Positions 35,051-62,640 of a stretch of 64,000 nucleotides of DNA are shown here, piece after piece. Position 1 is the first letter of the stretch. The number at the start of each line of letters is the position of its first letter. A program made the position numbers and the translations under genes. The DNA comes from Selaginella moellendorffii (taxonomy: Eukaryota > Plantae > Lycopodiophyta): NCBI RefSeq assembly GCF_000143415.4, contig NW_003314383.1:328145-392144 (forward strand). Direction: 5' to 3'. The notes beneath the pieces are model-generated. The model saw only the letters and a program-made list of their open reading frames with translations, did no database searches and was not told where the DNA came from.

Positions 35051-35789
35051 GCGATCAGCAGAATTTTGGCACAGGTGTTTCCAAGACTGATATCGAGCAA
35101 TAACAAAGATGGAGTCAACCGACGATGCTGCTATGCCCGCCAGCATCGTAGAGGAAGTCATCTCTCTAAAGGCTCGTTTTCAAATCCTTTTGATTTTCAG
35201 TAACTATATAAGACGCCACTCTTCTCCTTTTGATGAAGAAGCGCCTCTGTCCGTGCTGCTCAGTCAAGATGACAATTTGGAGATTCTGACCACATGCTCC
35301 GAAGTCATGGAAGTCTGTGCCAAACATTGGTGACTGCGGCCTAATTGCTTGGGCAATTTGAGGATGTATAACAGGCAAGCAACGACTTCAACGGTCCGTA
35401 GAGGCAACAGAAACTCCTTTGGCCCTGGTGGATACCGAAACTTTTCTGCTTTTGTTAAAGCAGTCCCTTGGTGAATAAATCTTTGCGCTCGCCCGAGATT
35501 GCCCTCTGCATGGATATAACGTTGGGGAAATAAACCAAAAACGTTATGTTGCGCAGGATCTGGGTAGTGCACTGCCGAGACTGTAGCCAAGCCAACCTTG
35601 TCATCAACCTTCCTCACGGTTGCCTCCAGCATACACTCAGCCGCTCGCAAAGTAGCACTGCCCATTGTGCTCCCACAGCCTTGTCGTGCACAAACCAGGG
35701 TGCGGCAACATCCAGTCACACCAATTTTTTTTTGGCAAACCAGCATCTCCAAGAAAGGAGCAAGCTGCTTCCTAAAGTGTCTTGTTGAC

Positions 35790-37465
35790 AAGCCGTGCCA
35801 TTCTGCTGTTGTGTGTTTGGTATAGAGTACTGACACGCAATCCCTTCATCATCACAAAGCTGATGAATTCTCTGGATGTATATTTATCACCACCATCATT
35901 GCGAAACTTCTTGAGCTTCTTTCCTGTTTGCAACTCTGCTTTGGTCTTGAAGAGCTTGAACTCACCAAACACCTCTGATTTACGAGAAAGAAACTTGATG
36001 ATGCGGGAAAAATTGTCCACAAAGTAAATTATATGCTCACTAGAAAGGGAGGGCATCATACACACATTCGAGCTCTAGAATCTCTATAGCTCTTACAACA
36101 ACACTAGTCTTTAAGGGAAACATGTGCTGCTTTGCAAGAATACACAGCTTACAAAACTTCAGCTTTTGTGAAGTGATGTGCAGACTAGCAACCATGCCTG
36201 AATGTATAAGCTTTTTGATGTCCTGATAGTGTGTCCAAGCTGTTGATGCCAGGTCTGGAGGTCAACAGGATGCTGGGATCCCACATAAAGAAGGGTTGAG
36301 TAGGGAATTCCAATTCTACATTGAGCCAGTAGAGACCAGCGTGATGCCTCCCACTAGCAATAACACTCTCATTCTTCAGAATCAAGCATTGCATAAGAGC
36401 TCCATGTTGCAATCAACGACCTTACCAACCGAGAAGAGGGATTTCTTGATGCCAGGGACATGCTATGGCAGCCACAACCTTCCCATAAGTAAAGGGGACT
36501 TTGATGGTGCCTATGCCACACATGCTGTGGGAGTAGTCATCACTATGCTTACCCTCTGGAATCACGTCCAAGCAACTGAAGAGTTCCTGGATGTGTGTTG
36601 GCGCTACTGTCAAGCCAAAAAGCTCTCATTGATTGGGAAACTCAAGCTTAGAGTCTGTAGTTGCAAGGGCCTGGAGATCAATGTTTGAAGTCATGAACAA
36701 GCTGTCACCATTTTGAGCATTGTCATCTGCCCGAGCATAGTTCACTGCCTGCCTTTATGGATTTCTTTAGCTGGCTTGGTTGCTTCTATGCAGTCATGTG
36801 CAAAGTGGCCAGGTTTTTTGCAGATATTACACAAGCCATTATTCTTGCACTTCTTGTCCTTCTTTTTCTTGTGGTTCTACCCATTGCGCTTACGATCCTT
36901 GGGCTACACCCTCCTGGTGCAGCCCGAGCATGTGCCAGACAGAGACTTTGGCTGAAGAGTTCGCAAACATGGCAAGATTGGAAGGAATGTCTTCAACCGA
37001 TTGGGACAGCAATGGGCAAGCATGTTAGTGACCACCCATTGGTGGGTGCTTAAAGAGCTGACAATATCTTGGACCACCAAATTTGGTCTTAAGCTGATAC
37101 AGCTTTCAAATTACTCACAAATGCTCATGTGTTGCATTTTCCAATCCTTGACACCATCTGGGGCCTAACAAAGCTCAAAGATCTCCTGAGATTCTTCTCC
37201 ATGTAAAAGTGCTCCATCAGCCAAGGAAATCCTTCCCATCGAACACTTTGAGCAAGTCTTTGTTAGGAACCATTCCACCATGATGAACTAGAGAAAGAAG
37301 ACAAAGAACACACACATGATATCCCCATAGTTCCCCTTGCACATACTAAAGAAACAAAGTTACATATATGACCTGCTGGCCAACTGCTTACCAGCTAACT
37401 GCCTCTCTAGAGGGCTCTAGAAGACTCTCAAACGTTCTGGAGAGCTTCCTAGAATATCCACAACA
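35790..37465 (-). mobile_element. Truncated Ty1/copia element (possible ~205-bp LTR at 37261-37465, gag Zn knuckle, pre-integrase, integrase N-half)
   Basis: CNICKKPGHFAHDC at ~36785-36830; WHQQLGH at ~36232-36253; FVDNFSR..FLSRKSEVFGEFKLFK..LKKFRNDGGDKY; TGTT...AACA ends at 37261/37465. No clear PBS. Confidence 0.75.
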
Positions 37466-37849
37466 TGGGATATCCTAAAAGTGTGCAGCCTGAGGATTAC
37501 AACAGGCCTGAAACACAAGGCTGGAGATGGAAATCCTGCACTGTGTGTGCTGCGCCCTGGTTTGAGCTTCAATGGCCAGCACTACTTTGCAAGCGGCTAT
37601 GCCTGAGGAAGGGGCGCGTGGAAGGTTACAGTCTTAGAATTGCACTACCAAGATCCTGCACATCATATCGTCTCCGGTTTGTTTCCCCGTCGTTCTATCC
37701 ATGCAGAGGGCAATTTGGTCATCTTTGCGGAGTCAGGGCGAGGGGTTTATTACTTGAACACAATTTGCCAAGGGACTGCATTATCGGCCACACTTAAAAG
37801 CGGAAAAGTGCACACCGCCATCCAAATCCTCACGTTTGCTGCTTCTTAA

Positions 37850-38800: not shown

Positions 38801-40549
38801 CACACCCAGCTTGAGCAGCCAAAAGAGTGTACTGCTAAGACCTTCTCCAGGCACTGAACTAGCTGGTCCCATCTATCTTTTTGCCTTTCTCCTTCTTGAA
38901 GAGGATTTCCCTTTTAAGGGTTTTTCAAATTCCTAAAAAAATGAATATTCTTTTTATATGCTTTGCAATAAATATAAATATTAAGTGTGAGGTCCAAGTG
39001 TATAGCTATGATACCGTATATTAATATTAGCATTGGGATTTTGGTAGTTGTTGGATTGGTTTCAACGTAAACCATTCACTACTGTACATAAATTAAAGTT
39101 TTTGGGTTAATTGATATGCACATTTTTTATATTCCCTTTATATACATTAGTGGAGATGAAAGGCACTTTTGATTATCCCTGAGGAGTGGTTGGATTTGGG
39201 ATTTTGGTTTAGATCTAGCTTTTGCATTGTCTAGGTCTAGCTTTTTTCATTTCATTTCTTTTGTTTTTTCTTTTTAGGATTTTAGTTTAAATCTAACTTT
39301 TGCATTATTTAGATCTCTTTTTTTTAAATTTTTTTTTTTCATGTTTCTTCTTTTGCTTTTCCTTTTTCATTCATCTTTATGGCAGAGTAGCAGTCTCCTC
39401 TTACTTTGACTCTTGAGCAGCAGTTGGTGCAATTGCTTGATGTTATGCAATTATAATTAAACAACCAAACTCAATTGATGGGGGCATTCACGGCATGTGG
39501 TATAACTCTTCCTGCTCTTGGTGTCAATCCTCACATTTGGCCAGAATTCTTTCATGGGAATTTTGGGGATGATATGTACTATTGGTTTGATCATTTCACA
39601 GTGATTGCCACATATCATTCTTGGGATGATGTTTGATGTTTGTGTGAGTTTCCCATGTGTTTCCAAGGGATGGCATTGTAGTAGTATTGATTAGTTTTTC
39701 AAGTTTTATTATTTGTGGTCATATACATAAGCTCTTATTGTTGCCCATCCATAAACACAATAACTAAAGTCAAAATATACCTAAGATTCCTTCTTGCATT
39801 TGTCAAACCAAGTCAACTCCACTACTTAGTCCTTTGGTGGATATCTTCATCATGTAACAATGTTAGTTGTTGTCATTGTTTACTTGGAATAAACCTTCAA
39901 AACAATAATTTTTATGTGTTTTATGAGGAATTAAATATTGCTTATTTCATCCTTGTCAAGCCTAAATTCTCTTTGAACTTTATACAACCAATGCTTTAGC
40001 CTAAAATTGTTGCATTTGATTAATGGAAGCTATTATCTTTTGATATTTATCTTCTGTCATCCTTGATATCCCCCATGTATATGAATAAATCTTGAATTTG
40101 ATGCTTTGTTACGTATTCATTATCCTTGTCAAATTTAGTAAAGAATTCTTTGGCAACAACTTCCTTTATGATCATATGCATGACTAACCTAGGACCTTTC
40201 AATTTACTAGCCTTTTCCTCCACCATTGTATGTAGATTCTGTTACTCTCACCTACTCTTTCGGATTGGGATGTCATGGTTGTGGAAATGATGCCTTGTGA
40301 AGTTGGTATCATTTAGGCAATTGTTTGCAATATAAGCATTTCAACAATCTTTTATCCCCCTTTTTCCTTGAAGAGTCGTTGCCCTACCATTGAACTCTAG
40401 CCTTCTCAGCTAATGTTGTAGCAATGCTTTCAATCCAATCTCATTTTTTGGGTGTCTCTATTGTTTGAAAGAAATTACAAAAAGAGTTATCACATTTAAT
40501 CATTCTAACACATTAGAAAGACATATTTTGGCAAATTCTTAATCATTGT

Positions 40550-41188
40550 TGTAAGGAACCAACTCCCCGAGGTGTCATAGGGTAAAAGGATCTCTGAAAG
40601 CACGACCGAAATGATAAAGAGTTCATTGGATGGAACCGAGTATGAGATCGAGTCCAAGACCGACTCTAAGACCGAGTTTGAGATAGAGTTCGGGATCGAG
40701 TCTGAGGCCAACTCCGAGACCGAGTTCGAGACCGAGTTTAAGACGGAGTCCAAGATCTGAGATTGGGTCTGAGACCGAGTCCAAGGTCGAGTCCGAGGTC
40801 GAGTTCAAGATCAAGTTTGAGGTTGAGTCCGAGATCGAGTTCGAGACTAAGTCCGAGGTCGGGTTTGAGATCGAGTTCGAGGTCGAGTCTGAGACCAAGT
40901 TCGACTACTAATACAGGTCAAGGGGTGAAAGCCCAAAGCATGTGTCTCCTGGGGGGGGGGGCTGTAGAGGGTTCCAAAAGTATAGTAGGGATAGTGAAGT
41001 CCAGGAACTAGTCTTGAAGGAACTCTCCAATGGTACTTCCAAACTGACTTAAGGTTGAGACTGGGGCCAAGGGGCGTTGGGTGGGAGTGAGCATGGACTT
41101 AGGTGGTGCCAGAGGGGCCACCCAAGGAAGTGGTCACGAGCAGCTCCCACTCTCGGAAGGGAAACCGACTGCAGTGCTTCCAGCTCAT
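40550..41188 (+). repeat. 5' LTR, left part (contains a 6/12-bp GAGTCC/GAGACC tandem array ~40636-40905)
   Basis: Near identity to 62641-62741; interrupted at 41189 by the TIR element. Confidence 0.9.
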
Positions 41189-42819
41189 AAGCTCTATTTC
41201 GTTAAAGTGGGATTTATTCAGTAAAATGGGACTAGGTACAAATTTTTAAGTATTTGAAAATGACGTGAAATTATATGTTTTTTGTCTAGGGGCTAGACAT
41301 ATCTGGGGTATGGTGACTAGCGCGGTGACTTTGTGTCCAGACTGAGTCCATCTGGTTGTATAATAAATCTCATTGTCAAGGTGAACAAGCCGAATCTGAA
41401 GCTAAAGAAGAGCGATGGCATGCGCGCACACACTATTTGTTTGTTCATTGAGCGTGTGGTGAGCTTTCCAAGATGAACGTCATTCCTATTAGCCAGACAT
41501 ATAACTTAATGGTGAGAACATTTAGATATTATTCAATGTTATCTTTTTCTAATGAATCTAATTGTGAAGGTGTAGCAAGAGGCATTGCTAGTCTGGAGAA
41601 GTCATTTAACTCATTTGACCCTTAGTGTATTTTCATGAAACTAAATAACATTCATATTATTAAGGAATTTCTCTAGTACCTTTTTTTTACGACATAGAGG
41701 CTTGCATTTCTTTCAAAGGTGATTTAGTAAAAGGCTTGAGGGCACATGCCATTCTATTTCTCAGACCAGTATTAAGATATACTAGTGCAAAGGGAAAAAG
41801 GTATTTGGTGATCAAGTAAATGGCATGAGGGCACACGCCATTATAAGCCTAAGCGCTAGTGGACACCTCCTTTTTGGTACTCTCAGCGGTACTATCATCC
41901 TTCTCCGGGTCAGTTGTTTTGCTTTGGATTGTTGTCTCTAACGTTACTGGGGCATTCTCGATAGTTGTTAATGTTGCCGTTTGTTCAGAAAAATGATCAC
42001 CTAGAGTATAGTACGGGGAGTTTGGAAGACTTATATATTTTACATCTTCACCTATCTCCTTCTCCGTCTCCTTTTCTGCCTCACTTACAGATTTTGTGCT
42101 TGCCATGAGAACGCTCTTCACCCTAAAATATGGAGTTCATTGTGTTATAAAAGGAAACCAACACACACGCTGCAAGGGAATGATGGTACATAAAGCACGT
42201 AAGCCCACAATATGGGTTTATGTGCCATTAATATGGGCCACATGCCATATTATTAGATTTATGCACGTGTGATTGGTAAATGCATATGTCACATCATTTT
42301 TGTTTTACCTCACACACTATATCAGGCCTAATGAACCATATCACATGTGCGCACATGCTATATATATGGAGAAGTATTATGCAAGGATAGAAAAATTCAA
42401 TGCATGATTGTGGAGAGCAATGGCATGAAGCCACATGCTAAATAACATTTTAGAGAAAGAATTAAAATAGAAACATGCAAACACTACTGAGTGGACCAAG
42501 ACTTAGAAGTGCACAATTGAATGAGGTATTTCTAATAAATATTTCACTCACCTTATATAGGAATGGCTACCACTCTCAAATGGCATATCGCCTCATGCCA
42601 TCACCTCGCAATTTGTTATAACAATCCGATGAATTCATATTCGGCTTGTTCACCTTGAACTTTAAGTAAGATTTGCTAGAACAACTAAGAATTTATACTT
42701 GTTATTTGTATCATCTCACCTAGGAATGGCATAAGGCCACATGCCATCACGCCTCCTCTGATTCAGATTCAGATTGTTCACCTTGAAATAAAATACATTA
42801 GAAACTTAGTAAAGGAATA

Positions 42820-45800
42820 TTAATGAATCTCACCTTGAACTCGGGTTATGAATGCTCTTGTTGCATCTCTTGCATGGTCTGGCAAGGTGATGGTGGCACT
42901 CTGCTTCCGCATCCAACCATGCACAACATTATCCACTGATATGCTCATGCTGAGATCCCTTGGATTCAGCACCCATCTCTTTTCTAGGCAATCCTTTGTA
43001 TATCCAGAACTTGGCTTGAACCACTCCATAGTTACATTGAAGGAGTTAGTTTCCGCGTCCTCCTCTGCATCAGTGATGCAGTGCCCCACCCATATCATTT
43101 GTTTTTTATTACTGGGTCTGACAAGCACGACCATTCCTTTGCAGACCTGTACTGGATTGAATGCTGAATTCGGCTTCTTGTTCCTCGGCCCACAATAGTG
43201 ATCCTCAACATCGTTATCTGTCACTGCATTTCCAGAGGACATTGTTCCGCTACTATCTGGTGCTCTGGGTTCTGGCCAAAAGGACTCTTCCAATTCTTCA
43301 TATACAACCGGCCCATTTTGGATAGTAGATATAATCTTCTCCCAGTATTCGAGCAAAGGCTTGCACCTCTGAAAATAGGATTCTCCACCAAACACCAACC
43401 CCCTCTTCCAAAAGGCAATATGCTGTCTAATCCCGGCCACTATACTTTCCTGGTCTTTGAGTCCATCCGGGTGCGTCGGCCGTGGGGAACCCTGAGGAAT
43501 CATAGGTTCCTTAGTTATGGGATCTCTCTTGAAGAGTTCAATGCCGTCCACTGGCAGCCACACTGTGTCCCATTTTCTCATCTTGTACTTCATCACTGGA
43601 GCACCGTCACGCATGCTGAAATGAAACTGAAGAGGCTTGGAGTGGCCAATCAGCGTTTCGGATCCGTCCCTGATGTAGCCTCTTACAAACCCCTTAAAGT
43701 CTGGAACCTCTGTCACAAGTGCAGCTTCAACAGTGCCTTTGATGCAATTTTGGAATTCATCGTAGAGTTGTGGGAGGGTGAGGACATTGGATCGCTGGAG
43801 GGACTTTGCCAAGTGACTGAACATGGCATCGACGTCTTCATGAGTGTGCCCAACAATGAGAAAGCCAAGTGTAACTATTTCAAATATGCCTTTGGCAACA
43901 AGCATCGCCAAGTACGCGAAGACGTACATGTTTTTGTTCTCACTGCCAGCATTGTCTGTTTGGAGCAGAAGATGGGGTGGAAAGCCACATCGGCCGCAAG
44001 AACTTCCTTGAGATTCTGCTTCGTTTGGATGAGGCTGTGCATTCACCGGGCGACCAGCCTCGTCAGAATGGCATGAGGCCTCACGTGATAACCCTACAAT
44101 CTGACGGCCAACATATTCACTAGGATGGCATGGGGCCCCACGCGATACTGCAAGCCTTTGCTCCTCCTCCAGCTGAACCCTGTATGGGGTTCAATCGACA
44201 AGGGCCTTATGCAAGGGTTGGCCGTTCAGCTCAGTCTGCGCACTTTGCAGAGACCTTAAGTGTTTTGCTAGGGACGCAATCATCATGTTTGCACCCCCAC
44301 CACCCCATAGAGGTACAAAGAAGTTCCCATAGTTCTGGGCACCATGCCCATGAGCGATTATGCCAAACAGAGACATAGGCAGCTGCATGGATGAAGAGAT
44401 TGCCTTGGGGGCAGGATTGAGTCGAGGTAAGCACGTCTTTTTCTGGTCCATTTTGTCGTGGATGATGCAGAGGTAAGAGTCAGGTCTCTCCATGGAGAGA
44501 ATCCTGTTATGATAATATGCAGTCCTGTAGCTTCTCTGCTTCTCTGCTGTAGCCACCTTCTAACCAACATCTCTCGCTCTTGAGCGCTGCAAGAATTCTT
44601 TGACAAAGCCATTTTGATAGCAGTGCACTCGTCACACTTTGAAAAGCTGGAGTACTTTCCTATACTCACATCCCTGAACCTGTTGCTCCACAATCTACTA
44701 AATCTAGATTGGCTTAGCTTCCTGTAGCCATTACTCTGGAGTTCCCGATTCATATCTTCCAATATGGCCCCCTTGGTATACATGGAAGGGAGAATTTGTT
44801 GGGTGTCTCGTGTTCCATCTTCCAAGAGGCGGGTTTTATGTGGTTGCTGCTTGCTACATGTCTCGACAAACCTCTTGAAGATTGCCTCTCCATATACAAC
44901 ATGACCCCTGGTTTTGTGCGTACCGTCGTTCCCATGGACTGCCTGTTGAACCCTTTGTTCCTCGAACTCAGTTTTGATTCTGTAGAATGTGGTTCGAGGG
45001 ACTCCATAAATGATTCTCCATGCCTTCATGCAGACCAAACCCCTCTGGAAGACCATGCCCCCCACCTGATGTTCTGAAGCATCAACAGATGACCGTAATG
45101 CCTCATACACAAAATTGTGAGCTGCCTTCCAGGACAATGTCTTGTATCTTGCTCTCTCCTCTTCAATAGCATCCCAATCAGCATGTTGACAGCACCTCCT
45201 CTTGCAACAAGCAATTGTCGAGACCATTCGAACCTCCATCGCCATTTTCTACCTTTTCGATTTGTTGCTCAGATCCCTTTGGCTGTGCTTTAGGAAGGTG
45301 TACTTTCTTTTCCCATGAAGAGATGTTCTGTCATCAGTTGTAGTGGTGTTTGATTGTGAATCCTTCACATTCTCAAACACTAAGTGCCTCAATTTCCACC
45401 GCACAATGCTTCCAATAGTCAGATTGTTTTCTTCTGTGTCAACAACCTCTAAAATCGCAACTCCAATATCATCCCAGCCCAATTCTTGATTAGCAACCGC
45501 ATCTCTTGGATCGACAACTGTGGCTAAGCCCTCAGTTACCACCTCCCCCTCAGGGTTGTTTAGAAACACCTTTGCCTGAATCCATGTAGCACGGTTCTTA
45601 AGATCCACGGAGGGAACATGCGTCGCAGTTGCGCTGTCCCCAACATCTGCTTTCTTCTGAAGATTTTTCAAGGCAACAACAACATTTACCCCGACGACCA
45701 TCTCTCCTCGTTCAATAGCGACCACATTCCCATCGAAGATAGTCTCTACTGATATAGCAGCATTGCCTTCCCCAAGCCTTTGACAGTGTATAACAAAGTT

Positions 45801-45886
45801 CCGATCCATAGACACAAGCGTCCCTTTTGCAACTCTCTTCCCACCATTCAAAATGTAAACCTTTTCCCCAACCCTGAAGGCGATTC
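42820..45886 (-). pseudogene. Sola3-like DDD transposase (two in-frame stops, one frameshift); 5' exon(s) not located
   Basis: IIHDKMDQKK, GGANMMI, LLQTDNAGSENKN, FLIVGHTHEDVDAMFS, FSKCDEC. ORFs 45249-45851 and 44358-45245 are co-frame across a TAG. ORFs 44191-44556 and 42820-44046 are co-frame across a TGA. Frameshift at ~44555. Confidence 0.85.
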
Positions 45887-46072
45887 TGAAAGTGCAGAAA
45901 AGAAGTTAAGACCATACAAAAAATGATTGGAGAATGGCCTAAATCATAACATACCAAACAACCTCAATAGCATGAGGCCACATGCCATTATTCAAACATG
46001 CTATTGACACCCACGTGAAATTTCGCATTCACAAAATTGGCATGAGCCCTCATGCCATTAGTGGTACCACTA

Positions 46073-46264
46073 ATGGCATGAGGCCTCACGCTATCTTTGG
46101 CCCCTACTAGCCTGTTGCTATACTCCTTTTACCTTGCTGCAACTGTCTATATTTTTGTGGCCATGACTAGTCACCCATACAAAAATATATACAGTTGCAG
46201 CAAGGCAAAAGGAATATGGCAATAGGCTAGCAGGGGCCAAAGATGGCATGAGGCCTCATGCCAT
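46073..46264. repeat. ~190-bp near-perfect inverted repeat (hairpin) centred on TGACTAGTCA
   Basis: The left arm atggcatgaggcctcacgctatctttggcccctactagcctgttgc... is the reverse complement of the right arm ...gcaataggctagcaggggccaaagatggcatgaggcctcatgccat. Confidence 0.92.
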
Positions 46265-46710
46265 CTTGATATACACACAGCTGCAGGCAAGTAAAAACAT
46301 ACATGACAATACGCTAGCCATGAAATTGCAAGGGCCCAAGATGGCATGTGGCCTCATGCCATTTTTAAATGTGGTCCTAAGCCATTCCATGGTGAACATA
46401 CTAGGAAGCACAAGTGCCGAATATCAAGAGGAAGCGGTAGCCACACCAAAGACAGTGCCACTCGCAACACCGCAACTACTCGTAGCGCCGCTCGCAACAC
46501 CACAACTGCTCGTAGCGCCGCTCGCACAAACTGCCACTCGCATAAACTGCCGCTCGCAATGGCGCTCGCAATGCCGCAACCGCTTGTAAACGCATAAACC
46601 ACAGCTCACAACGCCGCTTACACAAGCAGCACTCACTGCACTCAGCGGAACCAAGAACACGGCGCACAAAAATGATAGACCTAGGAATGAGTTTGAGAAT
46701 TCAAAAATAA

Positions 46711-48632
46711 CACACGCTTGAACGTCACATCAAATCCTCTGACAAACCAGATCTTATGATTCCTCTGACAAATTTCAAACTGAGTAGCTTCTAGACTTTG
46801 CTGTCGGACGTTGAACTTTGTCACATCATGTCCTTGCCTCGATCCAGCTGTGCCATGTCAGTGATTTGAACTTTGCTATGCCGTGTCAGCGATCCGCACC
46901 AAGATTATTCGCCGTGTAAAGGAATAATTATGTTGTGTGTGTACGTCCATTTATGGCAATATAAAGCCACACGCCATTCAAAGAATAATGCTAGTCGAGC
47001 ATTTTTTGGTGCATTTTTTGGTTCAAAATTGCATGAGCCCACACGCTATAAAGTTTACCTATACCAAAAATAGAAACAACTTTATTTACTTGGGAATTTA
47101 AGTGGTTGAGGCATTTTTAAACTTACAAACACATGCCCTACTTACATTCCTTTGGTTGCTTAAAATTCAAAAATATTATAAACCTTTCTTTTTGCATTCT
47201 CAATGTTTTCAATTATGGTTTTTGATTTTCACAGGATCAGCCTAGTAATCTATTTGCATCCCGTCATGTTTATAGCTAGCTTTCGTTTGTCCCCTTTGCT
47301 AGCCTGAGATACATCTGCTCGGCATCTGCCTCTTACAGCATTTGCCCAGAAAGGGCATCTTTCTTCACGCAGCATTTGCCACATGTTTAGGGTTTAGGAT
47401 TTAGGGTTTAGCAATTCAGTAGCTTGATAAACATGCAAATACAGAACTTGATGCAAAATCCTTTGATATGTCACAATGCCCCTAAAATCATAAACACATT
47501 TCAATAGAGAGGGTCCTTTCATTTCATAACTCCTTACGTAGATCTTGGTGAAACCAAAGTTAGTGAAGTTAGTTTCTTGTGATCCCACATCTGATTGTGA
47601 TGTCCCTTTGCAGTGTCGATGGAAAGGTCAATGCACACCAAACTGTAAAATCTTGGAGCAAAATAACGGTCGGATCTATGGCAAATGCCCCTGAAACATT
47701 GTAAGGCTCGTGTGGTCTCATGTGGTGTCTGATCGAGATGCTTCTTTGCAGGGTCATCAGGAAAGATATTGTATACCATTCTGTAAAATCTAGTTGCGAT
47801 CTAACGGTTGGATCTCCAGAAAACTCAAAAAAATCTCGTGCGTGTTAGAATATTCTAGGAATATACTCCTATGTGCCCCTGAAAATGGCATGCGGCCCCA
47901 CGCCATTCAAGAGATAACAAGAAATGATGCCGAGCATTTTTTGGTGCATTTTTTGGGATCAAAATTGCATGAGCCCACACGCTTGAACGTCACATCAAAT
48001 CCTCTGACAAACCAAATCTTATAATTCCTCTGACAAATTTTAAAGTGAGTAGCTGCTAGACTTTGCTGCCGGATGTTGAACTTTGTCACATCATGTCCTT
48101 GCCTCGATCCAGCTGTGCCATGTCAGTGATTCGAACTTTGCCATGCCATGTCAGCGATCCGCGCCAAGATTATTCGCCGTGTAACTGCTCGGCATCTGCC
48201 TCTTACAGCATTTGCCTAGAAAGGGCATCTTTCTTCATGCAACATTTGCCACATGTTTAGGGTTTAGGGTTTTGCAATTCAGTAGCTTGATAAACATGCA
48301 AATACAGAACTTGAAGCAAAATCCTTTGATATGTCAGGACCATAAACACATTTCAATAGAGAGGGTCCTTTCATTTCATAACTCCTTACGTAGATCTTGG
48401 TGAAATCAGAGTTAGTGAAGTTGGTTTCTTGTGATCCCGCATCTGATTGTGATGTCCCTTTGCAGTGTCGATGGAAAGGTCAATGCACACCAAACTGTAG
48501 AATCTTGGAGCAAAATAACGGTCAGATCTATGGCAAATGCCCCTGAAACATTGTAAGGCTCGTGTGGTCTCATGTGGTGTCCGATCGAGATGCTTCTTTG
48601 CAGGGTCATCAAGAAGGACATTGTATACCATT
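46711..48632. repeat. Internal shuffled segmental duplication in the transposon spacer
   Basis: ~46711-46919 matches ~47976-48184; ~46968-47047 matches ~47899-47983; ~47316-47781 matches ~48186-48632. Confidence 0.88.
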
Positions 48633-49529
48633 CTTTATTTAGCTGAACATCTGGCATTTTTGGAAATACAAGATGCTTTGGAATATCCAATCATGCATGG
48701 TATAAATATAGCGAGGGTATTAAATGATATCCCAATCATGATCTTTCTTTTGGATTTCGCGTGCATGCAGTCCGAGGAATGATGACGTTGCAGATTTCTT
48801 TTGGATTTCACGTGCATGCCAGAAATTAATGGTGGTGCCCAAGTCCGAGGAATGATGACGTTGTGGGATTACCAACCGTCGTGACATTTTGCGCGTGTGA
48901 GGTTAGGTTTTGCATCGTACTTGCGCTCGCACACTCGCGCTCGCATCGCGCTCCAACTCGCGATCACGCTCACATTCGGGCTCATCTACCTTCTCTACAG
49001 GTTTCTCGTGTGCATCGGCGTCCACTCGCGCTTGCATCACACTCGCGCTTGCATCGCGCTCGTGTGCATCGTCGTCCACTTCAAGACACACCCAGTTTGT
49101 AACTTCGCTGCCAACTCCGCCACCCACTCCGCCACCCACACGCAGCCCACTTGGCGTCCCGGGAGATTTCAGCGCCACTCTCCAACTGTAAGTGGCAGAG
49201 TAGCCTTGCTGCTACGATCTGCTGCACACACAGTGCACATTCGCCAGCGAGTCCGGCCTCGATTGTCATGCCGCCATTCGGCTTCAAATGGTAAGTCTTT
49301 TAGGCCAAGTAGAAAATGGCATGAGGCCACATGCCATTCAGTAGCAACATTGTCATGCACCGATTGGGCTCTCGAGTGCAGTCCGGTTACAGATGGCGTG
49401 TAGCCTCACGCCATCTTAGGATGCAGCCTCAAGACATCTGATGTAGTGGTGAATGGCGTGTGGCCTCACGTTATTTCCAGCTGCTAGCTTTTCATCTGTC
49501 AGCTCTAATTGTTGTGCATTTCTGAACAG

Positions 49530-52500
49530 GCGAGGAATTGCGTTCTTCTTCCAGCCACTGTCAATGTGGATGCAGAGAAGGGGGAGGAGCTCACCAGTTG
49601 GACTTTCGGGATGGAAGGCAAGGATCTGAGGTTGTACAACACAGATGGTGGGAGAAAAGAATGCATGGGGATCCTCATCCAAGTGACAGACACTCCATGC
49701 AGTTCCATGCAAGAATATGGACTGGCACTTGTGGTAGAGACAGCGTCCGCCTTCAAGATCCACCTTGCACATCCTAGCGGCTTCCCGGAGGGGGGCAGCG
49801 GCTATGAGGAATTCCTAGAGGGAGCTAGGGAGAGGTTGTCCAGGAGGCCCACAATTTCAAAGACGCTGCGGGTCTATGAAGATCACATGGAATCCACGGA
49901 CCTCACCTACGGCGATGTTCAAAAACTATATTCCAACATTGAGCCGTTGAGAGTGCCTCCAGTTCGCAAAGCAAAGGGGAAGGGGGTCGATCTGGAAACT
50001 ACCCCAAAGCAGAAAAGGGTGGTCAAGCTCAAGCCAACGTCCAACTCTCCTGCTCCAAAAAAGAAGCTACTCGGTGATGCCATTGTCTCGGGTTCGAACA
50101 CTACACCCACCAAAAAGAAGAGCCGCAAAGAGCAGAAAGAGCAAGAAGAGGCAGCAAAAATCGTCGCAGATAATAGTACTTGTTACTATTCCAACAAAGT
50201 ATATACAATCGACGTGAGCCGTATCGACATCCAAAGCAAATACAACCACAGGCTAGTATCTGATGAGTGGGTGGAGAAACTGAAGCAGAAGATGCTGGCA
50301 AGTCCAGTAACACCCGACATCGCAGACGTGATCCCCTACTACCGAACAATGAAGGGCGAGACGAGGTTTCCAGACTTGATCAATAAGAAGGTGTTGGACG
50401 ATCAGAACATCTGGTTCTATGCCGTCTCCGGGCAGCATTCTAGCTTGGCGATGCAAGAGATAGTTGTGGATATTATGGTGGGCGGGGAGGTGAAGAAAGT
50501 CTTCAAGACAAGAGTTGTCCGCCTGATAAAAGGCAACTCGCCCCTCCGATCTATCATATACATCTCCCACGCGCAGAATGTCAAGCAAGAAACGTGCTAC
50601 AAATCGGGTCTACACGAGACATTGGCATGAACACGGAAGCTCTGGATTCAACTGAAGAAGCCACAAAAACCAGGACAAGGACGTGCACTAGCAACTAGCG
50701 CCTGGCAGGTAAGCCTCGTTGCATATGGCATAGTATGCGGCCTCACGCCATTTCTATTGCAGGAATTCTCGAGTCTTCTCTCGAAAACACTGGGGGTCAA
50801 TGACACACTCAGCATCCATAACATTCTACTCGCGACAAAAGTTGTTTTTGACAAATGGGTAGATGTGCTGAGGAGGTACTATGACGGGGAGTTGCTAAAC
50901 TCAATAGGTGTGGAGGACAGCCGAAAACCCAATGATTTGAAGCTCAACGCCTTGCGTTTCTCGCGGTCTCTAGACGACGACGACCTTCTGACAGTGGCTA
51001 ATGCTCTTCTACGTGGTGAGGTAGTCTTCAACAAGACCAAAATGACTCCCGGCCATATTGTGACATACGAGGACTTGTGCAAGACTCTGAGAGCTCGTGC
51101 GCTATTGAAGGATTGGATCTTCGAGCAAGTGGCCGTGGAGAAGGTGAGCATCGACACCACGCAAGAGATGATGGAAGCGCTGGAGTTGTCAAATGAAGAC
51201 ATCGACGAGTACGTGAAGGGGGCCCCCAAGTTCATCGATCTGCTGCGGGATGCCACGAAAAGTAAAGCTGAGAAGTTGGATCAGTATCCAAATTTCATTA
51301 AGAGGGATGTCGACCACCGGCTTCAGAAACAGCTCGACCCCGCAGCAGAGGCCTATCGAGAACCTTACTGAGTATACGTGAATTTGGATGAGGATCAAAG
51401 GTGGAGGAGCATCGTTTCCCGCGGAGATGAGCAGGTCAAGAACATCTTTTGTGTGATGGACTTCACAAACGAGGAGATCACTCATGCAGACGAAGTCAGC
51501 TCCATCATTGACTTAATGGTGGGACTTGCGGAGGTGGAATCTTCAGTCCACTATATGATCTACGACTTCGAATCCTATCACAAGTTCTAGAAGGCCTTGA
51601 ACGAGGTGAAGGCTTGGTTGAAAGGCAAGGAAATGCGGGAGATCCATGGGATAATGGCTAAGAAGAAGATACCGATGAATGTCCACATCTTCACACTCAC
51701 CCTTGTTATTGGTCCTGCAGTAGAGTGGGACTAGAGTGACTTCCCAGCTTCGTTCGATAAGGCCGATCGAATTGATCTGAGGGAGGTCAATTTACCCATG
51801 CCTGAGGAACTGAAGACGGCTATGGAGCTTTCGAATCCAAAGAAAGCTCCAGGTGCAGCATGGGAAATGCTCAGCTGGGTCTTCAACGTAATAGCGGGTG
51901 GGTCACCTGCTTCCGACTCCAAGGGCAAATGCGTTGTCGAGTACAACTGCGGCGGACTATTCTTTCGAGCCGCACTACTCAAGGGTGTCCCGTGTGTTGC
52001 GGTGACAAACTCCATTGAAGAGGTGACTTCAATGGAGCATATAATTACAGTTGCCAAAGAAAAACAGTATCTTCTCTGCGAACCTAGTGAGTATGCACTT
52101 TAAGTTTAAATGTTATCTCACAAGCTCTGTATGCAGGAGCGTGGCCACCCCCAGATGCTGAAATGGCGTTAACAGCTACTGTTGAAGATACCCATGTTGG
52201 GCCGAGCTCACAACCTGCACAAGGTAAGGTCACGTGAGGCCTCACGCCATTTTGATTATAGATCGTTGTGAATATTCAGACACGAAGACTGAAAAGCGCA
52301 CTGGTGGCACGTCGAAGAAGGACAAACAGACAAGCAATAGGAAAAAAGGAGGTACAAATTATATTTGCAATGGTGTGTGGTCTCATGCCATTCCTTGCAG
52401 GAGACACTTCTTCAAAGGCAAAACAGGCAAGCACCAGCCAAGCTCAAACTGACAGTGGTCATAAAAAGTGAAAGCACGTTGGACAGTCGTTGGGATCAGA

Positions 52501-54895
52501 GGCATTTGATTCGAAAAGGAAGAAGGGCAACGAAAAGATGATAGGTAATGCCTCGCGGTTATGGCGTGTGTGCCCATGCCATTCATTGCAGATCAAGGGC
52601 TGAGTGAAAGCAGCCAGTCACCACCTCCTGACTCAGATTCCTATGGTGGACTCCCCTTCCCCAATCTCAATGGAGAGGTACAATGGATGAGGGATGCTTT
52701 TCAAGTTAGGGCCACGTTTTTCTCATCTCGTCGTCTTCGAAGGGTGCAAGAACGTGCAGAAACCATGTTAAGACAATCGGGTGAGGATACGGTCCTAGGT
52801 CACGCACTAAAACAAGCTATGGATGTCTTGTATTTTGAGATGGAGACTCGGCCAGATGATTTTCCCAAGATGGTCCTGGAAGAACAAGCCATCCAGCCTG
52901 AGCAGCCTATGGAAGAAATGCAGGAGGGGGATGAGGAGCCAGAGAAAGATAATGAGCAGGAAAAGCAGAAGAACGAAGAGGAGGACAAAGAAGAGGAGGA
53001 CGAAGAGGACTTGGATGGTCCTCACAATGGTGACGATCACAATAACGACAACGACGATGATGACGACGATGGCCAGCCTGAGGTGGCCAAAGAACAGCGG
53101 AGGAAGGTCATACAAGACAAACCATCAGGTAAATAATAGTATATCCATTCCTAACCTTTTACCATTTCTAACATTGTCCATGTAGGTTGCAGAGCAAATG
53201 GTAAGTAGAGATTATTCAGTTGAATTTACAAACTCTAGCCTTTAGTGTTGAGGAAGGATAGTGCCAAGCAAGGGTCGAAATGTATGTCCAATCCTTCAGA
53301 ATCAGCAGTGCGCCCAAGTGATATCGGTCCTAGTTCCTCAATAGCAGTTGATGGTAAATATAGTATAGTCGATTCAATGTGCTAATGAGTTTGTTTTTAG
53401 TAGCACGGGAGGATACCATCTCAATCGAAGGGAGATATTTGGATATGCATATGGATCCGCCAGTGGACTCTACTTGGCTGCAAGAGTCATCAGAGCTGGT
53501 GGAGGCTACTATCCATATCAACGCCAAGCAAGTTGACCACGCTCCACTTGATGCTGCCCATACCACTGAGTCAATCTTGTCCACGTATCCAACTGACGGT
53601 GACCAGGTGCCATTGGACCTGCATGAGGCCGCCCCAGCCGCCGAGCCGGTCGTATCCTCATTTCCAACAGACTCAACGTGTGCCCAATCGTCTGACTACA
53701 CGCCGTTGGAACCTCCCTACACCGCCCCTGCTGCCTGTTCGGTCATGTCCACTTTGCCAACGGAGGCACTAGCTGAAATGGCGTGTGATCACACGCCATC
53801 GGAACCACCCCATGCCACTGTTGAGCTAGTTGTACCAGAGTCTACAGCTGAAATGGCATGTGCCCACACGCCATCGGATGCGATTGACCCCACATTGCAG
53901 AGGAGAGTATTTCCGCCCTTCACGTTTCCTCGACTAAAACCCTCTCAACGACCATCGGGAGCACCATTCGCTAATATTGTAGATGGTAAAATTGACTTGT
54001 ACCATTTTTTATGCTAATGCATTTCATTTCAGAGTCACGGCGAAGGTACTGTATCGTTTTTGATCTGAACAGTGTCCTTTTCTCCCATGAGCATGGCTCG
54101 TCCTCGAATGTCACTGCACCCTCCAAAGCCTGCAGTCGCAAGTTGGTCAAAAGAGACAGATTCACATTAATTATACGGGAGAAACTGCGGGATCTAATAA
54201 TGACCATGCGACACTTAAAATAGAGGGCCGGGTTCAATTTGCAATTGGGAGTTTGGACATCCATGATGCGCCACAATGCATTAACGTTGCTACAGATGAT
54301 GCACGATCAGACGCGAGTAATATTACCATTTGAATTTCTCCTAACGCAGGAGGATTGCTTGACTATGGTCCATGTGAGGGGTAGCAAGCCCATCTTCGTC
54401 AAGCCAGAGGCTGTAGTGATGAACCGGACTGCTAGGTCAAGTGAAATCCTCATCATCAATGACTCGCCGATTAAAACTGCAGCGAACACGCACACATATG
54501 CAGTGCACCCCATCTCTTGCAGTATGGAAACTAGGGAGAAGAAACCGTATGTTCTGGGGGACCTTGCAAAACGGCTTGGAGCGATGGTGATAGAGAACCG
54601 GCTAGTCCAGGAGGTGGCTGCAGAAATCAACCAAATGGCAGATGGAACGGTATATCAGAAGCCATTTGATCGGACAGACACCAGTCATCATTTATGGCAT
54701 GTATATTGTCTAGCCAAGCACTATCCGTATCTCCATAATCTGCTCAACCGGATGGAATCTTTGACCACTGAACATGAGCGTGGACGTATTAGAGAAGAGA
54801 TGGCATTACTATTGGGTTTAAATCCTGATAGTGTGGAGAGTGATGAAATTTTAAGATTATTGTATAGGCGTTGGAGGCAAAAAATAACAGTCTGA
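49530..54895 (+). pseudogene. Transposon cargo gene, multi-exon: ParB-like domain + degenerate amino-methyltransferase-like domain + acidic/Pro-rich linker + FCP1/NIF-type HAD domain; five in-frame stops
   Basis: One continuous frame 49530-50708, then GT-AG intron 50709-50762, then 50763-52087, reading through stops at 50628, 51369, 51588 and 51732. Further small introns follow. The last exon from ~54033 reads CIVFDLNSVL..VWTSMMRHN..FLLTQEDC..IINDSPIK, with a stop at 54221. It may be two genes rather than one. Confidence 0.7.
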
Positions 54896-55341
54896 GATGG
54901 CATGTATTTATTTAAAAATGTAACTTATTATGGCATGGGGTTCCATGCCATTGTATTAATATTAAAAGACAATTCTTTGAGAGGATTTGCATTATACTAG
55001 AAGTGTTACAGCATGTTATTGGAAGTCTACGAAGTTGTTTTATTAATAAGGGGAAAGTAAAAATTGAATGGGGACTTGGGCTCCACCTAGACTCGGAGCA
55101 ACTGAGCCAATATTAAAAGGATGGAAAGAAATTGAACGACGATGACAAGGAGAAGAGAGAGGTGAAGCAGTGGCAGGGGGAGGAGAAGTGATTGAGTAGA
55201 CATTTCCTTGTTTAAAATAAAATGGCATGTGCCTCAATGCAGTTGAATTTTGTTATATTTATATACTATATAAAGGTTTGGAAACCTTATTTTACAAGTG
55301 GGATAATGACAATTCCCACTTTAACGAAATAGAGCTTTCAT

Positions 55342-55843
55342 GTGGAATGGTGCCCCACTTGAGTACCTTGTGGCTTATTGGTCCTCACCCTTTTTAGGGG
55401 CTTGGGCCTTCCCTTTGGGATGGAAGTGGGGGGCTAAAGGTATTTATACCAAGCTGTTAGGCCACAGTGTTTCCCCTCGGCATCCCGAAGCAAGGATTGC
55501 ATCCAAGGCTTGGGATTTAGAGGGTCCCATGATCAAGCTTTGTTGTACCAACGGATGTTAAGAATTTGGAAGCTTGGTGTGCTTGGCTGCTTGTGCCTAT
55601 GGGGAGTGTAGTCAAACCTTAAGTCGAGTCTAACCCGGGGAAGCGGATTGGGAGAGATTTGAGAATTCGTGGATGGATGGCTCCGTTGCTTGTGCAATGA
55701 GTAGCTAAAACCAAGTAGGACCAAGTAGAATCTAGTACAATAGGCGGGAACCTTGGCAAGGGAACTTAACAAGGGCCAAAGCGGTGTTGGTCGGATAGAC
55801 AAGGTAAGCTAACAAATTGGAAAGAAAAAATTTATGGTTTATA
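55342..55843 (+). repeat. 5' LTR, right part
   Basis: ~55655-55843 aligns with ~62850-63043. Confidence 0.9.
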
Positions 55844-55846
55844 ATT

Positions 55847-55858
55847 TGGTATCAGAGC
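55847..55858 (+). promoter_or_regulatory. Primer-binding site (tRNA-iMet)
   Basis: TGGTATCAGAGC, 3 nt after the LTR end. Confidence 0.92.
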
Positions 55859-56895
55859 TTTTTCCTCAGTTCTAGCAAAGGATAGAGGCGGATTGCTGGG
55901 AGATGGCAAAGGCAGGGCATAAACGAACCAAGGCGGAGATGGAACCTCCTCCAGAGCTGAAGCCTTCGGTCAAATAAGAGGCTATGGATGAGGAATCCTT
56001 GCATGAGGAGAACTCTAGTGAGGAAACTTCCAAACAGGAGTCCAGTGGTGAGGTTCAGTCGTCCAAGGCTTGATTGGACATTCTAAAAGGAAAATTGGCA
56101 TAAACTAATGCTCTGTTGGAGACTCTCGTACGCAAGTTAAAGTGTGATGAGAAGCAGAAGAAAAAGTGAAAGACTGCGGATGCTGGTAGTGCAAAAGGTG
56201 TGGACCCTTCGGCAGGGACTAAGCCAGAACCAAACAAGGTCAAACAGATTGAAGTGGAATCAATCCCTCAAGCAGTTCCCAAGTACAAACCAAAGCCCCC
56301 ACCGGTCTTCAGGGGAGTGAATGACTATAAGGTGGTGGAGGATTGGTTTTATAATATGGAGGGCTATTTCTGAGTGTTGCGGTTACCGAGCTCGAAAAAG
56401 GTCCCATATGCAAAACCATACTTGGCAGATAATGCCAAGTCTTGGTGAAGAACAATAGAGGCCAATGAAGGACCGGTGGCCACTTGGGAAATGATGAAGG
56501 CGAGGATCCATGCAACTTATGTTCCTTTGAATGCTACTCTGCACCTAAGGGATGAGTTGAGTAGGCTGAAACAGACCGGAACCATTCAAGAGTATGTGAA
56601 TCGGTTTATGGCAAAGAGGATACTTGTCACGGATATAGGTGATATGGATGCATTCTATGCTTTTATATCAGGCTTGCAAACCTAAGCTCGCGGCGAGGTG
56701 ATGTGTTGGAACCCGACCAACTACAAGGAAGCATTGGATGCGGCTATCAAGATGCATTTTAATGATAACTTGCGAAAGGGGAACACAACGGGGTTGGGTC
56801 CACATTTAGCAAAGGGGCAAAACCAAAGGGAACATATGGCAAAGGGAAATTCAAGAAGAGTTTCTCTAAGAATGAGTCCTTAGGGTTCTGGAAAG

Positions 56896-58540
56896 TGTGA
56901 GACACAAAATCCCTAGGCCCCAAAGTGGAGCCGAAAGGGTGCCACGTGGTAGTGGCCGAAGCAAAAGCCAAACGAGCGTAACACATTTGGACTAAAAGCT
57001 CCGACTTGAAAGGTCGAGAGCGGGAGTGGAACTCCCAACAAAGGGCTCGAGGAACAAGCACGAAGCGAGCAATAAGCGAGACTCCAAAAAGGGAACCAAA
57101 AGGACCAACACATGACACGTGGAAGTGTTCAAGATGGAGTTCGAGATGGATCGAGACAGAGTTCGAGATGGAGTCCGAGGTGGAGTCCGAGATGGAGTCC
57201 GAGATGGAGTCTGAAGTGGAGTCCGAGATGGAGTCCAAAGTGGAGTCCGAGATGGAGTCCGAAGTGGAGTCCGAGATGGAGTTCGAAGTGGAGTCCGAGA
57301 TGGACCGAGACGGAGTCCGAGATGGAGTCCGAGATGGAGTCTGAGATGGACCGAGACGGAGTCCGAGATGGAGTCCGAGATGGACCCGAGATGGAATCCG
57401 AAATGGAGTCCGAGAAGGACCCGAGATGGAGTCCGAGGTCGAGACCGAGACCGGAACCGAGACCGGGACTGAGACCGAGACCGGGACCGAGGTGGAGGCC
57501 GAGACCGAGTCCGAGTCTGAGTCCGAGTCCGAGTTCGAGTCTGAGAGGGTGAAAGCCCAAAGCATTCGTCTCCCAGACCCTGGGGGGTTTGGTGAGCTCC
57601 AAAAGTATAGTAAGGGGGAGGACTGCAGTGGAGCCAATTTGGCCAGGAAAGGCCAGTTTGGCCCAGGAAGGCCGGACCCAGTGTTGGGTGATGAGCTGCC
57701 CACTGGGAAGTCCAAGACTAGAGTGAATACGGACCGACAAATGAGGTAGCTTGATGAAGTGTTCAAGAGCTGTCTCTAGTTCCCCCGGGAGATCAACTGG
57801 CCGATGCTCCCAGTCCAAGTGTGGGTGGCACTACCTACTTGGATACCTGGTGTGGCTCAACGGAACCTCGCTCTAAGCCCATGGCTAGAGCACCCAAAGG
57901 CAGAAGGCAAGGAGAGTACCCACGAGGCCCGCATAGGGCCACGGTGTTCTGAAATGTTGCCCCAAAGTCCTAGACTGTGGAAAGGAAGAGGAGTAGCCCT
58001 CTAGTGTGGTGACAAGAGACACAATCACACAATGAGGAAGTCCTAGAGGACAGTTGGACTTAGTGGTCGGGCTTGTGGGCCTTGATCTAGTGGCAGTGTT
58101 GGTGAACACAGCCATGGACAGGAAGGGACTGGGTGGGGACCGGAAAGGAGACATTGGGGAAGACTATTCATCATGTCTGCAGGCATCCTAAGGATGTTAT
58201 GGAGTGGATCTGGGATAGCCACTCATGGATGGATGGCTTAGTCTTTGAGAGACGGGATTGTAATGTAGGTGGTGTTGGACCACCGATGTGACCAAAATGA
58301 ATGGGCATGGCCTAGCGCAACAGGCTGGTATATCAGTAGTACCTTGGGGTGTCGGTCATGGGATCGAACACGTGGAGCACTTGGACCAAGTGCAAAGGTT
58401 GAGTGGCATGGATGCCATTCTCGGGGCTAGCAAGCCCCAAGTCCTGAATGGGACTTATGGAGGTTGTGAATGAGACTCCTCCAAGTGGTTGGAGGTGTGG
58501 TTAAGTGACTAAAGTAGAATGGAAAAATTAGTCGCTTACA
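56896..58540 (+). mobile_element. Solo LTR (1645 bp) of a related family inserted in gag
   Basis: Ends TGTGAG...CTTACA; near-TSD GAAAG/GAAAA. Shares the GAGTCC array and gggtgaaagcccaaagcat with the host LTR. The gag sequence resumes after it. Confidence 0.82.
57135..57545. repeat. 12-bp minisatellite (GAGATGGAGTCC)n within the solo LTR
   Basis: Directly visible. Confidence 0.95.
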
Positions 58541-60399
58541 GAAAAGCAGATTTGGTGGCTAGCGAACAAGTACGTGGAGGAGTCAAGCAAAAAAAGACAA
58601 ACCCACGAATAAGAAGGTCAAGTTTGCTAGCAGCATGGGAAACAATGTATGCTACAACTGCGGTGAAGTGAGACACTTTTCGAGGGAATGTCTCTACCCG
58701 AAGAAGGCCAGAGCCAATATGGCCAATAAGTCGGGTGGAATCCAAATTGAGGTATATGATCTAGTCCTTAGCTCAAAGTTACTCATTACACAAGCAACTT
58801 TGGTAAAGAGTCGTTCACGACATTTACTAGCCTTCCAAGGGAAGTTCGAAGGTAGCTTTGTTAAGATCCTTATTGATACGGGTGCTTCGGATAATTTTGT
58901 GGCTGCAGACATAGTCCGGCAAGCCGGACTACCGGTGCAGTGACTAGGTGAACCAAGGACTATAGAGTTTGTTGAAGGTAGCCAAAGCACCGATGAGGTA
59001 CTTTGATAAGCGAGTCAAAGTAGGGACATGGAAAGTAAACATGGATTTCATTGTATTGGACATAACGGGATTTAATGTAATCTTCAGGATGGATTGGTTC
59101 AATCGGTTCGTAGTAGCTCTACATGGACAAGGTAGGAACCTTGTGGTACTAGCAAATGCTCGGGGAGAACGATCTAGGGTGGAGGCTCAGGATTTGAAGG
59201 TAGGGCAATGTAAGGCCAAATACTCTTGTTTAAATTTGGTGTTCACGAGAGGACAACTCACTAAATGAACCAAAGCAGCATTTTTATGCTTACTTTCGAT
59301 GAAGAGTGATAAAAAGACGAGAACGTAAGAAGTACCTTTAATGATCTAGCAAGTGTTGAACCAATTACAAGATACCATGCTGGAGGAGCTACAGGCGGGG
59401 TTGCCCCCTACACGACCAATAGAACATAAAATTGAGCTGGTCGAGGGTGCTAAAGCGATGGTTCACCCACTCTATCATTTGAACGAAAAGGAATTCAAAG
59501 AGCTCAAGCGCTAACTAAGAGTTGGTGGACAAAGGGTATGTTAGGTTGAGCAAGTTGCCATATGGGGTGCCAGTGTTATTTGTGAAAAAGAAAGATGGAT
59601 CTATGCACATGTGCATAGACTACCGGTTGCTTAACTAGTATATAAAGAGGAACAAATACCCTTTGCCAAGGATTGAGGACTTGTTCGATAGGTTGGGAAA
59701 GACAAAATACTTCTTGAGGATTGACCTAAGGTTAGGATACTACCAGATCAGGGTAGCAGAGGAAGATGTCAAGAAGACAACCTGTCAGACAAGGTATGGG
59801 AGCTTTGAGTTTTTGGTGATTCCCTTTGGGCTGTACAATGCGTCGGCAACGTTTTTGACGTTGATGAACCACATCTTTGTACCCTATTTGGATCACTTTG
59901 TGGTCATTTATATTGACGATATCTTGATTTATAGTGAAACACTAGAGGAGCATGCCAAACACTTAACGAAGGTGTTTGAGAAACTAAAGGAACACAAGCT
60001 ATATGTTAAAGAAAGCAAATGTGATTTTGCTCAACAAGAGGTAAAGTTTCTTAAGCATATGGTGGGCAAGGACGGGTTCAAGGTGGACCCTGAAAAGGTC
60101 CAAGTGATCCAGGAATGGGAGCGACCATTGAATGTACATGAGTTGAGGGTGTTCTTGGGGCTATGCAACTACTACTGAAAGTTTATCAAACACTATCCGA
60201 GAGTAACCCTACTCTTAACAAACCAAACGGGTAAAGGGAAGATGGTATGAACAGTGGAATGCGAGGCGGCATTTGTCCACCTAGAAGGGAAGTTGATAAA
60301 GACTCCCTATATTAGCGTTATCCAACTTTGGTATGGACTTTAAGGTAGAAATGGATGCTTTGAACTTCGCGCTAGGGTAGTTTGAAGCAAGACAACCAT

Positions 60400-60499
60400 N
60401 NNNNNNNNNNNNNNNNNNNNNNNNNNNNNNNNNNNNNNNNNNNNNNNNNNNNNNNNNNNNNNNNNNNNNNNNNNNNNNNNNNNNNNNNNNNNNNNNNNN
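60400..60499. other. Assembly gap (100 N)
   Basis: Run of N. Confidence 1.
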
Positions 60500-62628: not shown

Positions 62629-62640
62629 GGGTGGTGGAGT
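62629..62640 (+). promoter_or_regulatory. Polypurine tract
   Basis: gggtggtggagt immediately before the 3' LTR TG. Confidence 0.75.

Follow-up and report, generated by a model that had tools for sequence, protein, structure and literature searches.

The 64,000-nucleotide stretch of Selaginella moellendorffii DNA analysed here (contig NW_003314383.1, positions 328,145 to 392,144; called the window below) harbours a whole DNA transposon of a multicopy family. The element carries a transposase gene, a large accessory gene on the opposite strand (Table 1) and 28 copies of a dispersed 22-bp palindrome which was found nowhere else in the window. With slightly better than even confidence, we read these palindromes as duplex sites bound by the accessory protein that the element itself encodes, with a self-regulatory role like that of VANC.

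Table 1. Features of the transposon, in coordinates of the window (TIR, terminal inverted repeat)
Feature	Position	Strand	Remarks
Whole DNA transposon, multicopy	41189..55337		14,149 bp; TIR pair, empty site; inserted in a repeat resembling a long terminal repeat (LTR) retrotransposon
Left TIR	41189..41215	+	27 bp; TCAT target-site copy at 41185-41188
Right TIR	55311..55337	-	27 bp; TCAT target-site copy at 55338-55341
Seven palindromes, left non-coding arm	41415..42747		starts 41415, 41731, 41820, 42340, 42420, 42580, 42726
Transposase gene, DUF7869 type	42820..45905	-	GHTHEDVD motif; stops and at least one frame change in this copy
Two palindromes in insertion of transposase frame	44068..44146
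Eight palindromes, spacer between divergent genes	45967..47985		five within 460 bp upstream of transposase frame
Accessory gene	49288..54895	+	~1,634-1,641 codons; ten GT-AG introns predicted; this copy with six internal stops
Three palindromes in predicted intron 1 of accessory gene	49316..49474		intron 49291-49529
Predicted ParB/Srx-like segment	50175..50627	+	ESM Atlas features; FYAVSGQHSS where ParB has GxRR box
Four palindromes, one per short predicted intron	50730..52582		introns 50709-50762, 52224-52279, 52352-52400, 52545-52591
Alpha/beta segment	51372..52086	+	degenerate beta-class N4/N6 DNA methyltransferase likeness, by eye only
Two exonic palindromes	53778..53874		duplicated low-complexity stretch (AEMACDHTPS / AEMACAHTPS)
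C-terminal NIF (FCP1/SCP-type HAD phosphatase-like) domain	54035..54500	+	first motif degenerate, DLNSV
Two palindromes, right non-coding arm	54930..55243		last ends 94 bp from terminus

The limits of the element are well defined. Its two TIRs are 96% complementary, and contigs of the public runs X1, X5 and X20 preserve the empty site, joining position 41184 directly to 55338 and skipping 14,153 bp (14,149 + 4). In other contigs of run X5 the element ends lie in other flanks. Contigs matching the stretch number 64,006 in run X1 and 165,655 in run X2, figures that count contigs and give no copy number; they show that the family has many diverged copies. These differ from the present copy mostly by A>G and T>C, and the present copy is decayed. 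At a loose end before 55296, run X5 also holds another copy, which differs in sequence there and has a better palindrome; it may represent a subfamily or a deletion derivative that retains a site near its terminus.

A search for the pattern ATGGCRTGNGGCCNCAYGCCAT gave 24 matches in the window at up to three mismatches, against none in 100 dinucleotide shuffles. A symmetric weight matrix (27.7 bits) was trained on these 24 matches and, at a threshold above 10 bits, recovered 28 palindromes, all lying inside 41415-55243, while nothing in the remaining ~50 kb scored above 2.2 bits. As the matrix was trained on the element's own sites, only this outside score serves as an independent control. Exact half-sites, counted within the 64-kb window, are similarly concentrated, with 40 in the 14,149-bp element and two in the remaining 49,851 bp. 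The confinement to the transposon asserted in the preliminary description is thus borne out. The 25 positions listed there as good copies all carry the motif and are all among the 28 matrix sites, with at most three mismatches in 23 of them, four at 41415 and five at 55222. Five further positions had been given as weak; those at 42340, 47028 and 47964 pass the matrix, whereas at the other two, near 42230 and near 46955, a half-site is found whose partner half is displaced.

The palindrome carries ~28 bits over its 22 bp, and its conservation stops sharply at the borders except for an A/T lean in the adjoining bases. Each half fits the consensus ATGGCRTG independently, and no change in one arm is compensated in the other, as would be expected if each subunit of a dimer reads one half in duplex DNA. 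A long dyad with independent halves, spread throughout the non-coding space of one element, is in our opinion most plausibly a duplex site recognised by a dimeric protein, the dimer being inferred from the dyad symmetry. Nearly half of the departures from the consensus (26 of 56) are C>T or G>A. Most of the degeneracy appears to be common to the whole family, judging from the left arm, where the seven sites hold 19 mismatches in 154 bases and two contigs of run X5 depart from the window sequence by 6 bases in 606 and by 13 in 1,000. The palindrome was found at no locus of a viral collection. Three metagenome loci with a match were treated as chance, each holding a lone match in DNA of 63-66% GC.

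The minus-strand gene matches Pfam PF25273 with E = 1e-41 when stops are read as X, and with E = 7e-39 in another search. We take this DUF7869 protein to be a Sola-type transposase. The terminal inverted repeats and the 4-bp target-site duplication agree with Sola1, for which an AWWT target preference is called a hallmark (PMC3845634); the single duplication seen here, TCAT, differs from AWWT, one site only being available. A Sola1 element of Physcomitrella appears in a table of PMC9033089. Relative to the DUF7869 profile, the gene contains an insertion of ~80 codons that holds two palindromes and is possibly an intron, profile position 57 being matched on both sides of the gap. When the transposase was used as a query against metagenomes, 39 pattern matches were obtained and none was confirmed.

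For the accessory gene, the predicted structure is a frame-continuity model running from the ATG at 49288 to the stop at 54895, in which the last four introns were selected from 120 combinations by fewest stops. Run X20, which we guess to be RNA, covers the predicted introns unspliced and was not used as evidence. Coding frames make up 57% of the element but hold only four of the 28 sites (p = 5e-6). Within the accessory gene, seven of nine sites fall in predicted introns, which represent 12% of the gene (p = 1e-5). Both p-values are optimistic, since the intron model was drawn with the site positions known. The copies had been described as sitting in spacers, introns and exons; the spacers and predicted introns stand, whereas exons hold only an exceptional few (4 of 28).

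The intronic bias could also mean that the sites work at the RNA level, forming hairpins or protein-binding signals that control the splicing or stability of the element's transcripts. Half of the ten predicted introns hold sites; among the four short ones, three have a site that stops 9-11 nt short of the acceptor. The two best copies do fold better than shuffles, with z-scores of -3.4 and -2.3; however, the other four of the six copies folded lie between -1.5 and +1.3, among them the intronic copies at 50730 and 52370 (z = -0.36 and -1.47), and 17 of the 28 sites belong to neither predicted gene but to spacers and arms. The lack of compensatory changes likewise speaks against pairing. The arms had been thought to co-vary, but at positions 6 and 17 the combinations A-T 11, A-C 10, G-C 4, G-T 2 and T-T 1 show no association (Fisher p = 0.36), and among all 11 arm pairs none performs better than shuffled partners, the lowest p being 0.09. 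The excess of A-C over G-T on the plus strand at these positions (10 to 2, p = 0.04) is a strand asymmetry without explanation and would suit a role in RNA, which we nevertheless regard as distinctly improbable. Of the two options raised in the preliminary description, a dyad site or a hairpin, the former gains from the confinement, the independent half-sites and the non-coding placement, and the latter is weak. The central GGCC mentioned there is no fixed core, being found in only 12 of the 28 copies, and G/C swaps are frequent.

Another explanation would regard the copies as a functionless residue, left as footprints, as the ends of small elements nested in the transposon or by passive duplication. 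The sites are indeed clustered, with 15 of 27 gaps at or below 200 bp where 8.9 would be expected (p = 0.004). A few pairs were copied along with their flanks (46073/46243, 41415/42726, 47028/47964 and 53778/53853) or lie in larger inverted repeats. To that extent the earlier view of single sites in unrelated flanks needs amendment. It holds for the flanks in general, which over 378 pairs share a median identity of 30%. Just one of the 28 sites is flanked by a 4-bp direct repeat (at offset 3). Taken together, these two results rule out that the palindromes are ends of a miniature inverted-repeat transposable element, and the unrelated flanks and missing target duplications indicate that most copies are not passive duplicates. 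Moreover, the 22-bp unit is kept with sharp borders over 13.8 kb and fitted into predicted introns of 47-56 nt. A mere residue can therefore hardly be credited.

Some details of arrangement may be recorded at this point. The sites at 46073 and 46243 form the outer ends of an inverted repeat with 86-bp arms (46073-46264, 91%) just upstream of the transposase frame, and a 47-bp inverted pair joins the sites at 41415 and 42726. A weak phase of 10.25 bp in the 15 short gaps (post hoc p = 0.03) is a hint only. The spacer contains internal duplications (46711-46919 with 47976-48184, and 47315-47785 with 48185-48637) along with short TTTAGGG telomere-like runs.

If the sites bind protein, the transposase or a regulator derived from it may be the ligand, for synapsis of the ends or for self-activation. 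The outermost sites come within 226 and 94 bp of the ends, seven occupy the left arm and five stand just upstream of the transposase frame. The 5' half of this gene gives a faint HTH_psq match (E = 0.2) and, at 45252-45905 on the minus strand, a faint match to Transposase_23 (TNP1/En/Spm; E = 0.03), where two similar beta-rich units can be seen by eye. A 2026 preprint also describes transposases that activate their cognate copies (10.64898/2026.08.24.746577). However, the motif is absent from the TIRs, and seven sites are placed within introns predicted for the accessory gene, at distances of 2.8-6 kb from the nearer end of the element, where they would seem needless for end synapsis. The large accessory gene would also be left without explanation. 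We consider binding by the transposase possible but unlikely.

A host transcription factor or chromatin protein exploited by the element is a further candidate ligand. CATG and CACG cores, which are contained in the half-site, are of the kind read by many plant factors, and the ParB assignment discussed below is not firm. On the other hand, a 22-bp dyad of ~28 bits that does not occur in the 50 kb of host genes and repeats around the element would be long and private for a host factor, and we regard this explanation as very improbable.

Binding by the accessory protein itself, which we favour and which the preliminary description does not mention, draws on the domains predicted in that protein, and the element itself encodes the ParB-like candidate, on the strand opposite the transposase. 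In ESM Atlas, the segment at 50175-50627 is closest to unnamed eukaryote clusters (0.97) and to DUF3723 (0.95-0.96), with ParB_N, at 0.92 and 139 of 256 features, in 23rd place among 30. The sole PHROG match of the segment is a ParB-like family at a weak E of 0.28. On these features a ParB-like identity is probable, although the fold, as read from language-model features only, and the intron structure around it are both inferred. A tblastn search of phages and plasmids with the accessory protein returned only matches with E of at least 0.3.

Towards the C-terminus, the NIF domain is matched by Pfam PF03031 (E = 2.7e-5; 24.3 bits against a cut-off of 21.8) and in ESM Atlas (0.93, 28 of 30 matches). 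The catalytic motif of NIF/FCP1-type HAD phosphatases is DxDxT, in place of which the accessory protein has DLNSV. Between the two domains, the alpha/beta segment at 51372-52086 shows by eye VMDF and YNCGG at the places of the DPPY-type and FxGxG-type motifs of methyltransferases. Custom profiles built from 76 and 46 phage methyltransferase halves gave 1.7 bits (iE 15) on this segment, and in hhalign against methyltransferase profiles it ranked behind 57 and 19 of 510 decoys. Of 12 weak tblastn rows, one (E = 8) falls on a phage N6_N4 methyltransferase, in its C-terminal half, and is suggestive only. Fold searches with a poor single-sequence model (predicted local distance difference test, pLDDT, 37.0) yielded no match at E <= 0.001; the best Z of 6.1 corresponds to background and no methyltransferase was prominent, which on such a model is no argument against one. 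We leave the segment unassigned.

Under the favoured reading, the accessory protein would dock as a dimer on the palindromes by means of its predicted ParB-like domain. Such docking would mark every copy of the family, enabling the element to recognise its own copies, and the marking would likely keep the family active against host silencing. The bound dimer could also deliver its attached domains to the element. Bacterial ParB dimers bind palindromic parS sites of 16 bp, and their CTP (cytidine triphosphate) binding requires the arginines of the GxRR box; VirB with its virS sites shows the same fold serving anti-silencing (10.1101/2023.06.01.543266). The present element resembles ParB/parS and VirB/virS in combining a predicted ParB/Srx-type domain with multiple palindromic, putatively cognate sites (28) on the same DNA. 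It differs from bacterial ParB in that the arginines are missing and neither a ParA partner nor a helix-turn-helix (HTH) was identified. With the arginines missing, static binding of a dimer is likelier than a CTP-gated sliding clamp.

Several points weigh against binding by the accessory protein, which at this stage is a prediction. The ParB assignment rests on one language-model search, whose top matches are unnamed or DUF3723; sequence searches of Pfam, NCBIfam and PDB found no ParB for the segment, and three word-seeded searches, at longer, near and shorter lengths, found no homologs of the accessory protein. The single-sequence structure model of the segment is unusable (pLDDT 30.5), and the GxRR place, where SGQHSS stands, was assigned by eye. 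In the helical stretch at 50763-51368 no HTH was identified, nor did any Pfam family match with E as high as 10. At 22 bp the site is longer than parS, which has 16 bp. As regards the gene model, predicted intron 2 is in frame and stop-free, and five of the ten predicted introns are without a site. Finally, the analysis concerns one decayed copy, in which C>T and G>A decay at the sites could mask covariation.

Pairings of this kind have been proposed for algal transposons. Sola1-1_Ec32 of the brown alga Ectocarpus is a 21.5-kb element with a 1,104-residue protein combining ParB and an N4/N6 methyltransferase, and its authors propose self-binding and self-modification (PMC12477816). Both elements are giant TIR transposons whose accessory gene opposite the transposase is ParB-like, here by prediction, a likeness seen in gene layout. 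The element described here is smaller (14.1 kb), resides in a land plant, and encodes a protein of ~1,640 codons with a NIF-like C-terminus and no demonstrable methyltransferase, and its 28 sites are mapped. The string 'palindrom' does not occur in the main text of PMC12477816; repeats may be mapped in the figures or supplements of this paper and of the one on Bostrychia cited next. Similarly, PAG3 in a red-algal Plavaka (EnSpm/CACTA) element of Bostrychia has a weakly supported ParB-like N-terminal domain (HHpred e-value 0.29), for which self-binding is proposed with no test in the main passages on it (10.1101/2025.02.11.637652). It shares with our element a predicted ParB-like domain beside inverted repeats, the same pairing of domain and site. 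There, however, the repeats are arrayed in tandem beside the gene, and a 2-oxoglutarate oxygenase serves as effector, whereas here the sites are dispersed, also into predicted introns, and the transposase is different.

A functional parallel is the anti-silencing system of the Arabidopsis VANDAL elements, in which VANC, a protein encoded by the element, binds a motif specific to its family. The VANC21 motif, whose function has been shown, is 9 bp long, has one orientation and spread by tandem repeats; its copies are enriched in introns and in intergenic and terminal non-coding regions and guide family-specific demethylation (PMC5735166). The palindromes likewise constitute a family-specific motif, dense in the same non-coding parts of their element, the binding protein here being predicted. 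No sequence link to VANC was found.

DUF3723, the nearest named family of the accessory segment by Atlas features and one to which no alignment-level homology was shown, occurs in genes that are conserved passengers of the giant Starship elements of fungi, which move by a tyrosine recombinase (10.1101/2021.12.13.472469). Our literature search, for which subscription journals, Repbase and supplements were outside the scope, retrieved no paper with both DUF3723 and ParB, and the available portions of PMC12730594 and 10.64898/2026.08.24.746577 make no mention of ParB. A Dam methyltransferase of chlorophyte type fused to a ParB-type HTH belongs to a different class (PMC4738411). A more ambitious joint reading is that a land-plant transposon uses bacterial-style ParB-and-site anti-silencing, its protein loading on the 28 private palindromes, covering the 14-kb element and delivering to the element's chromatin a methyltransferase-like module together with a domain resembling phosphatases of the RNA polymerase C-terminal domain. 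This would be a second, independent solution to the task of VANC, drawn from the domain stock of the Starship DUF3723 genes. We put it forward as speculative and rather unlikely as a whole.

What we describe is of a known kind, given that ParB-type accessory genes and self-binding have already been proposed for the algal transposons. The new aspects are the land-plant host, the dispersed 22-bp sites with their strong bias to predicted introns and the NIF-like domain on the accessory protein. The same literature search found no report of this combination and no test of the self-binding proposed for the algal elements. The element provides a simple assay, with a long and informative site, 28 natural variants, a surrounding 50 kb free of it and a family of numerous near-identical copies. 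If binding holds true, the system extends to land plants, would suggest how the family reached its high copy number and would offer a protein-site pair for targeting chromatin.

Around the element, LTR-retrotransposon-like repeats at 40548-41188 and 55338-64000 form the insertion host. Tandem arrays of the 12-bp GAGTCCGAGATG type lie at 40620-40954 and 57115-57564, and a reverse transcriptase fragment is found nearby at 59639-60175. An intact PPR gene occupies 19666-21468 on the plus strand. Its repeats mimic a palindrome family, ATGCCC-N5-GGGCAT (19.9-21.1 kb, with one similar word at 8984), which was considered as a second palindrome and dismissed, being the YAQNGH-type repeat of this gene and not a second system. 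The minus strand carries a receptor kinase with RCC1 repeats and a TNFR-like region at 402-2798, presumably CRINKLY4-like, and an aconitase-like gene at ~5000-8200 that was recognised by eye. Calls for tRNA-Pro, tRNA-Ile and tRNA-Ser fall within 26113-27661. Two copies resembling tRNA-Pro, at 26113 and 26211, are degenerate, and the Ser(act) call shows 89% similarity to the tRNA-Ile gene. The PPR, receptor kinase and tRNA genes mark the host as a land plant, and the short introns and PPR type would suit a spikemoss. At 35498-37714, two 91-bp inverted repeats (82%) separated by 2 kb are possibly another small TIR element.

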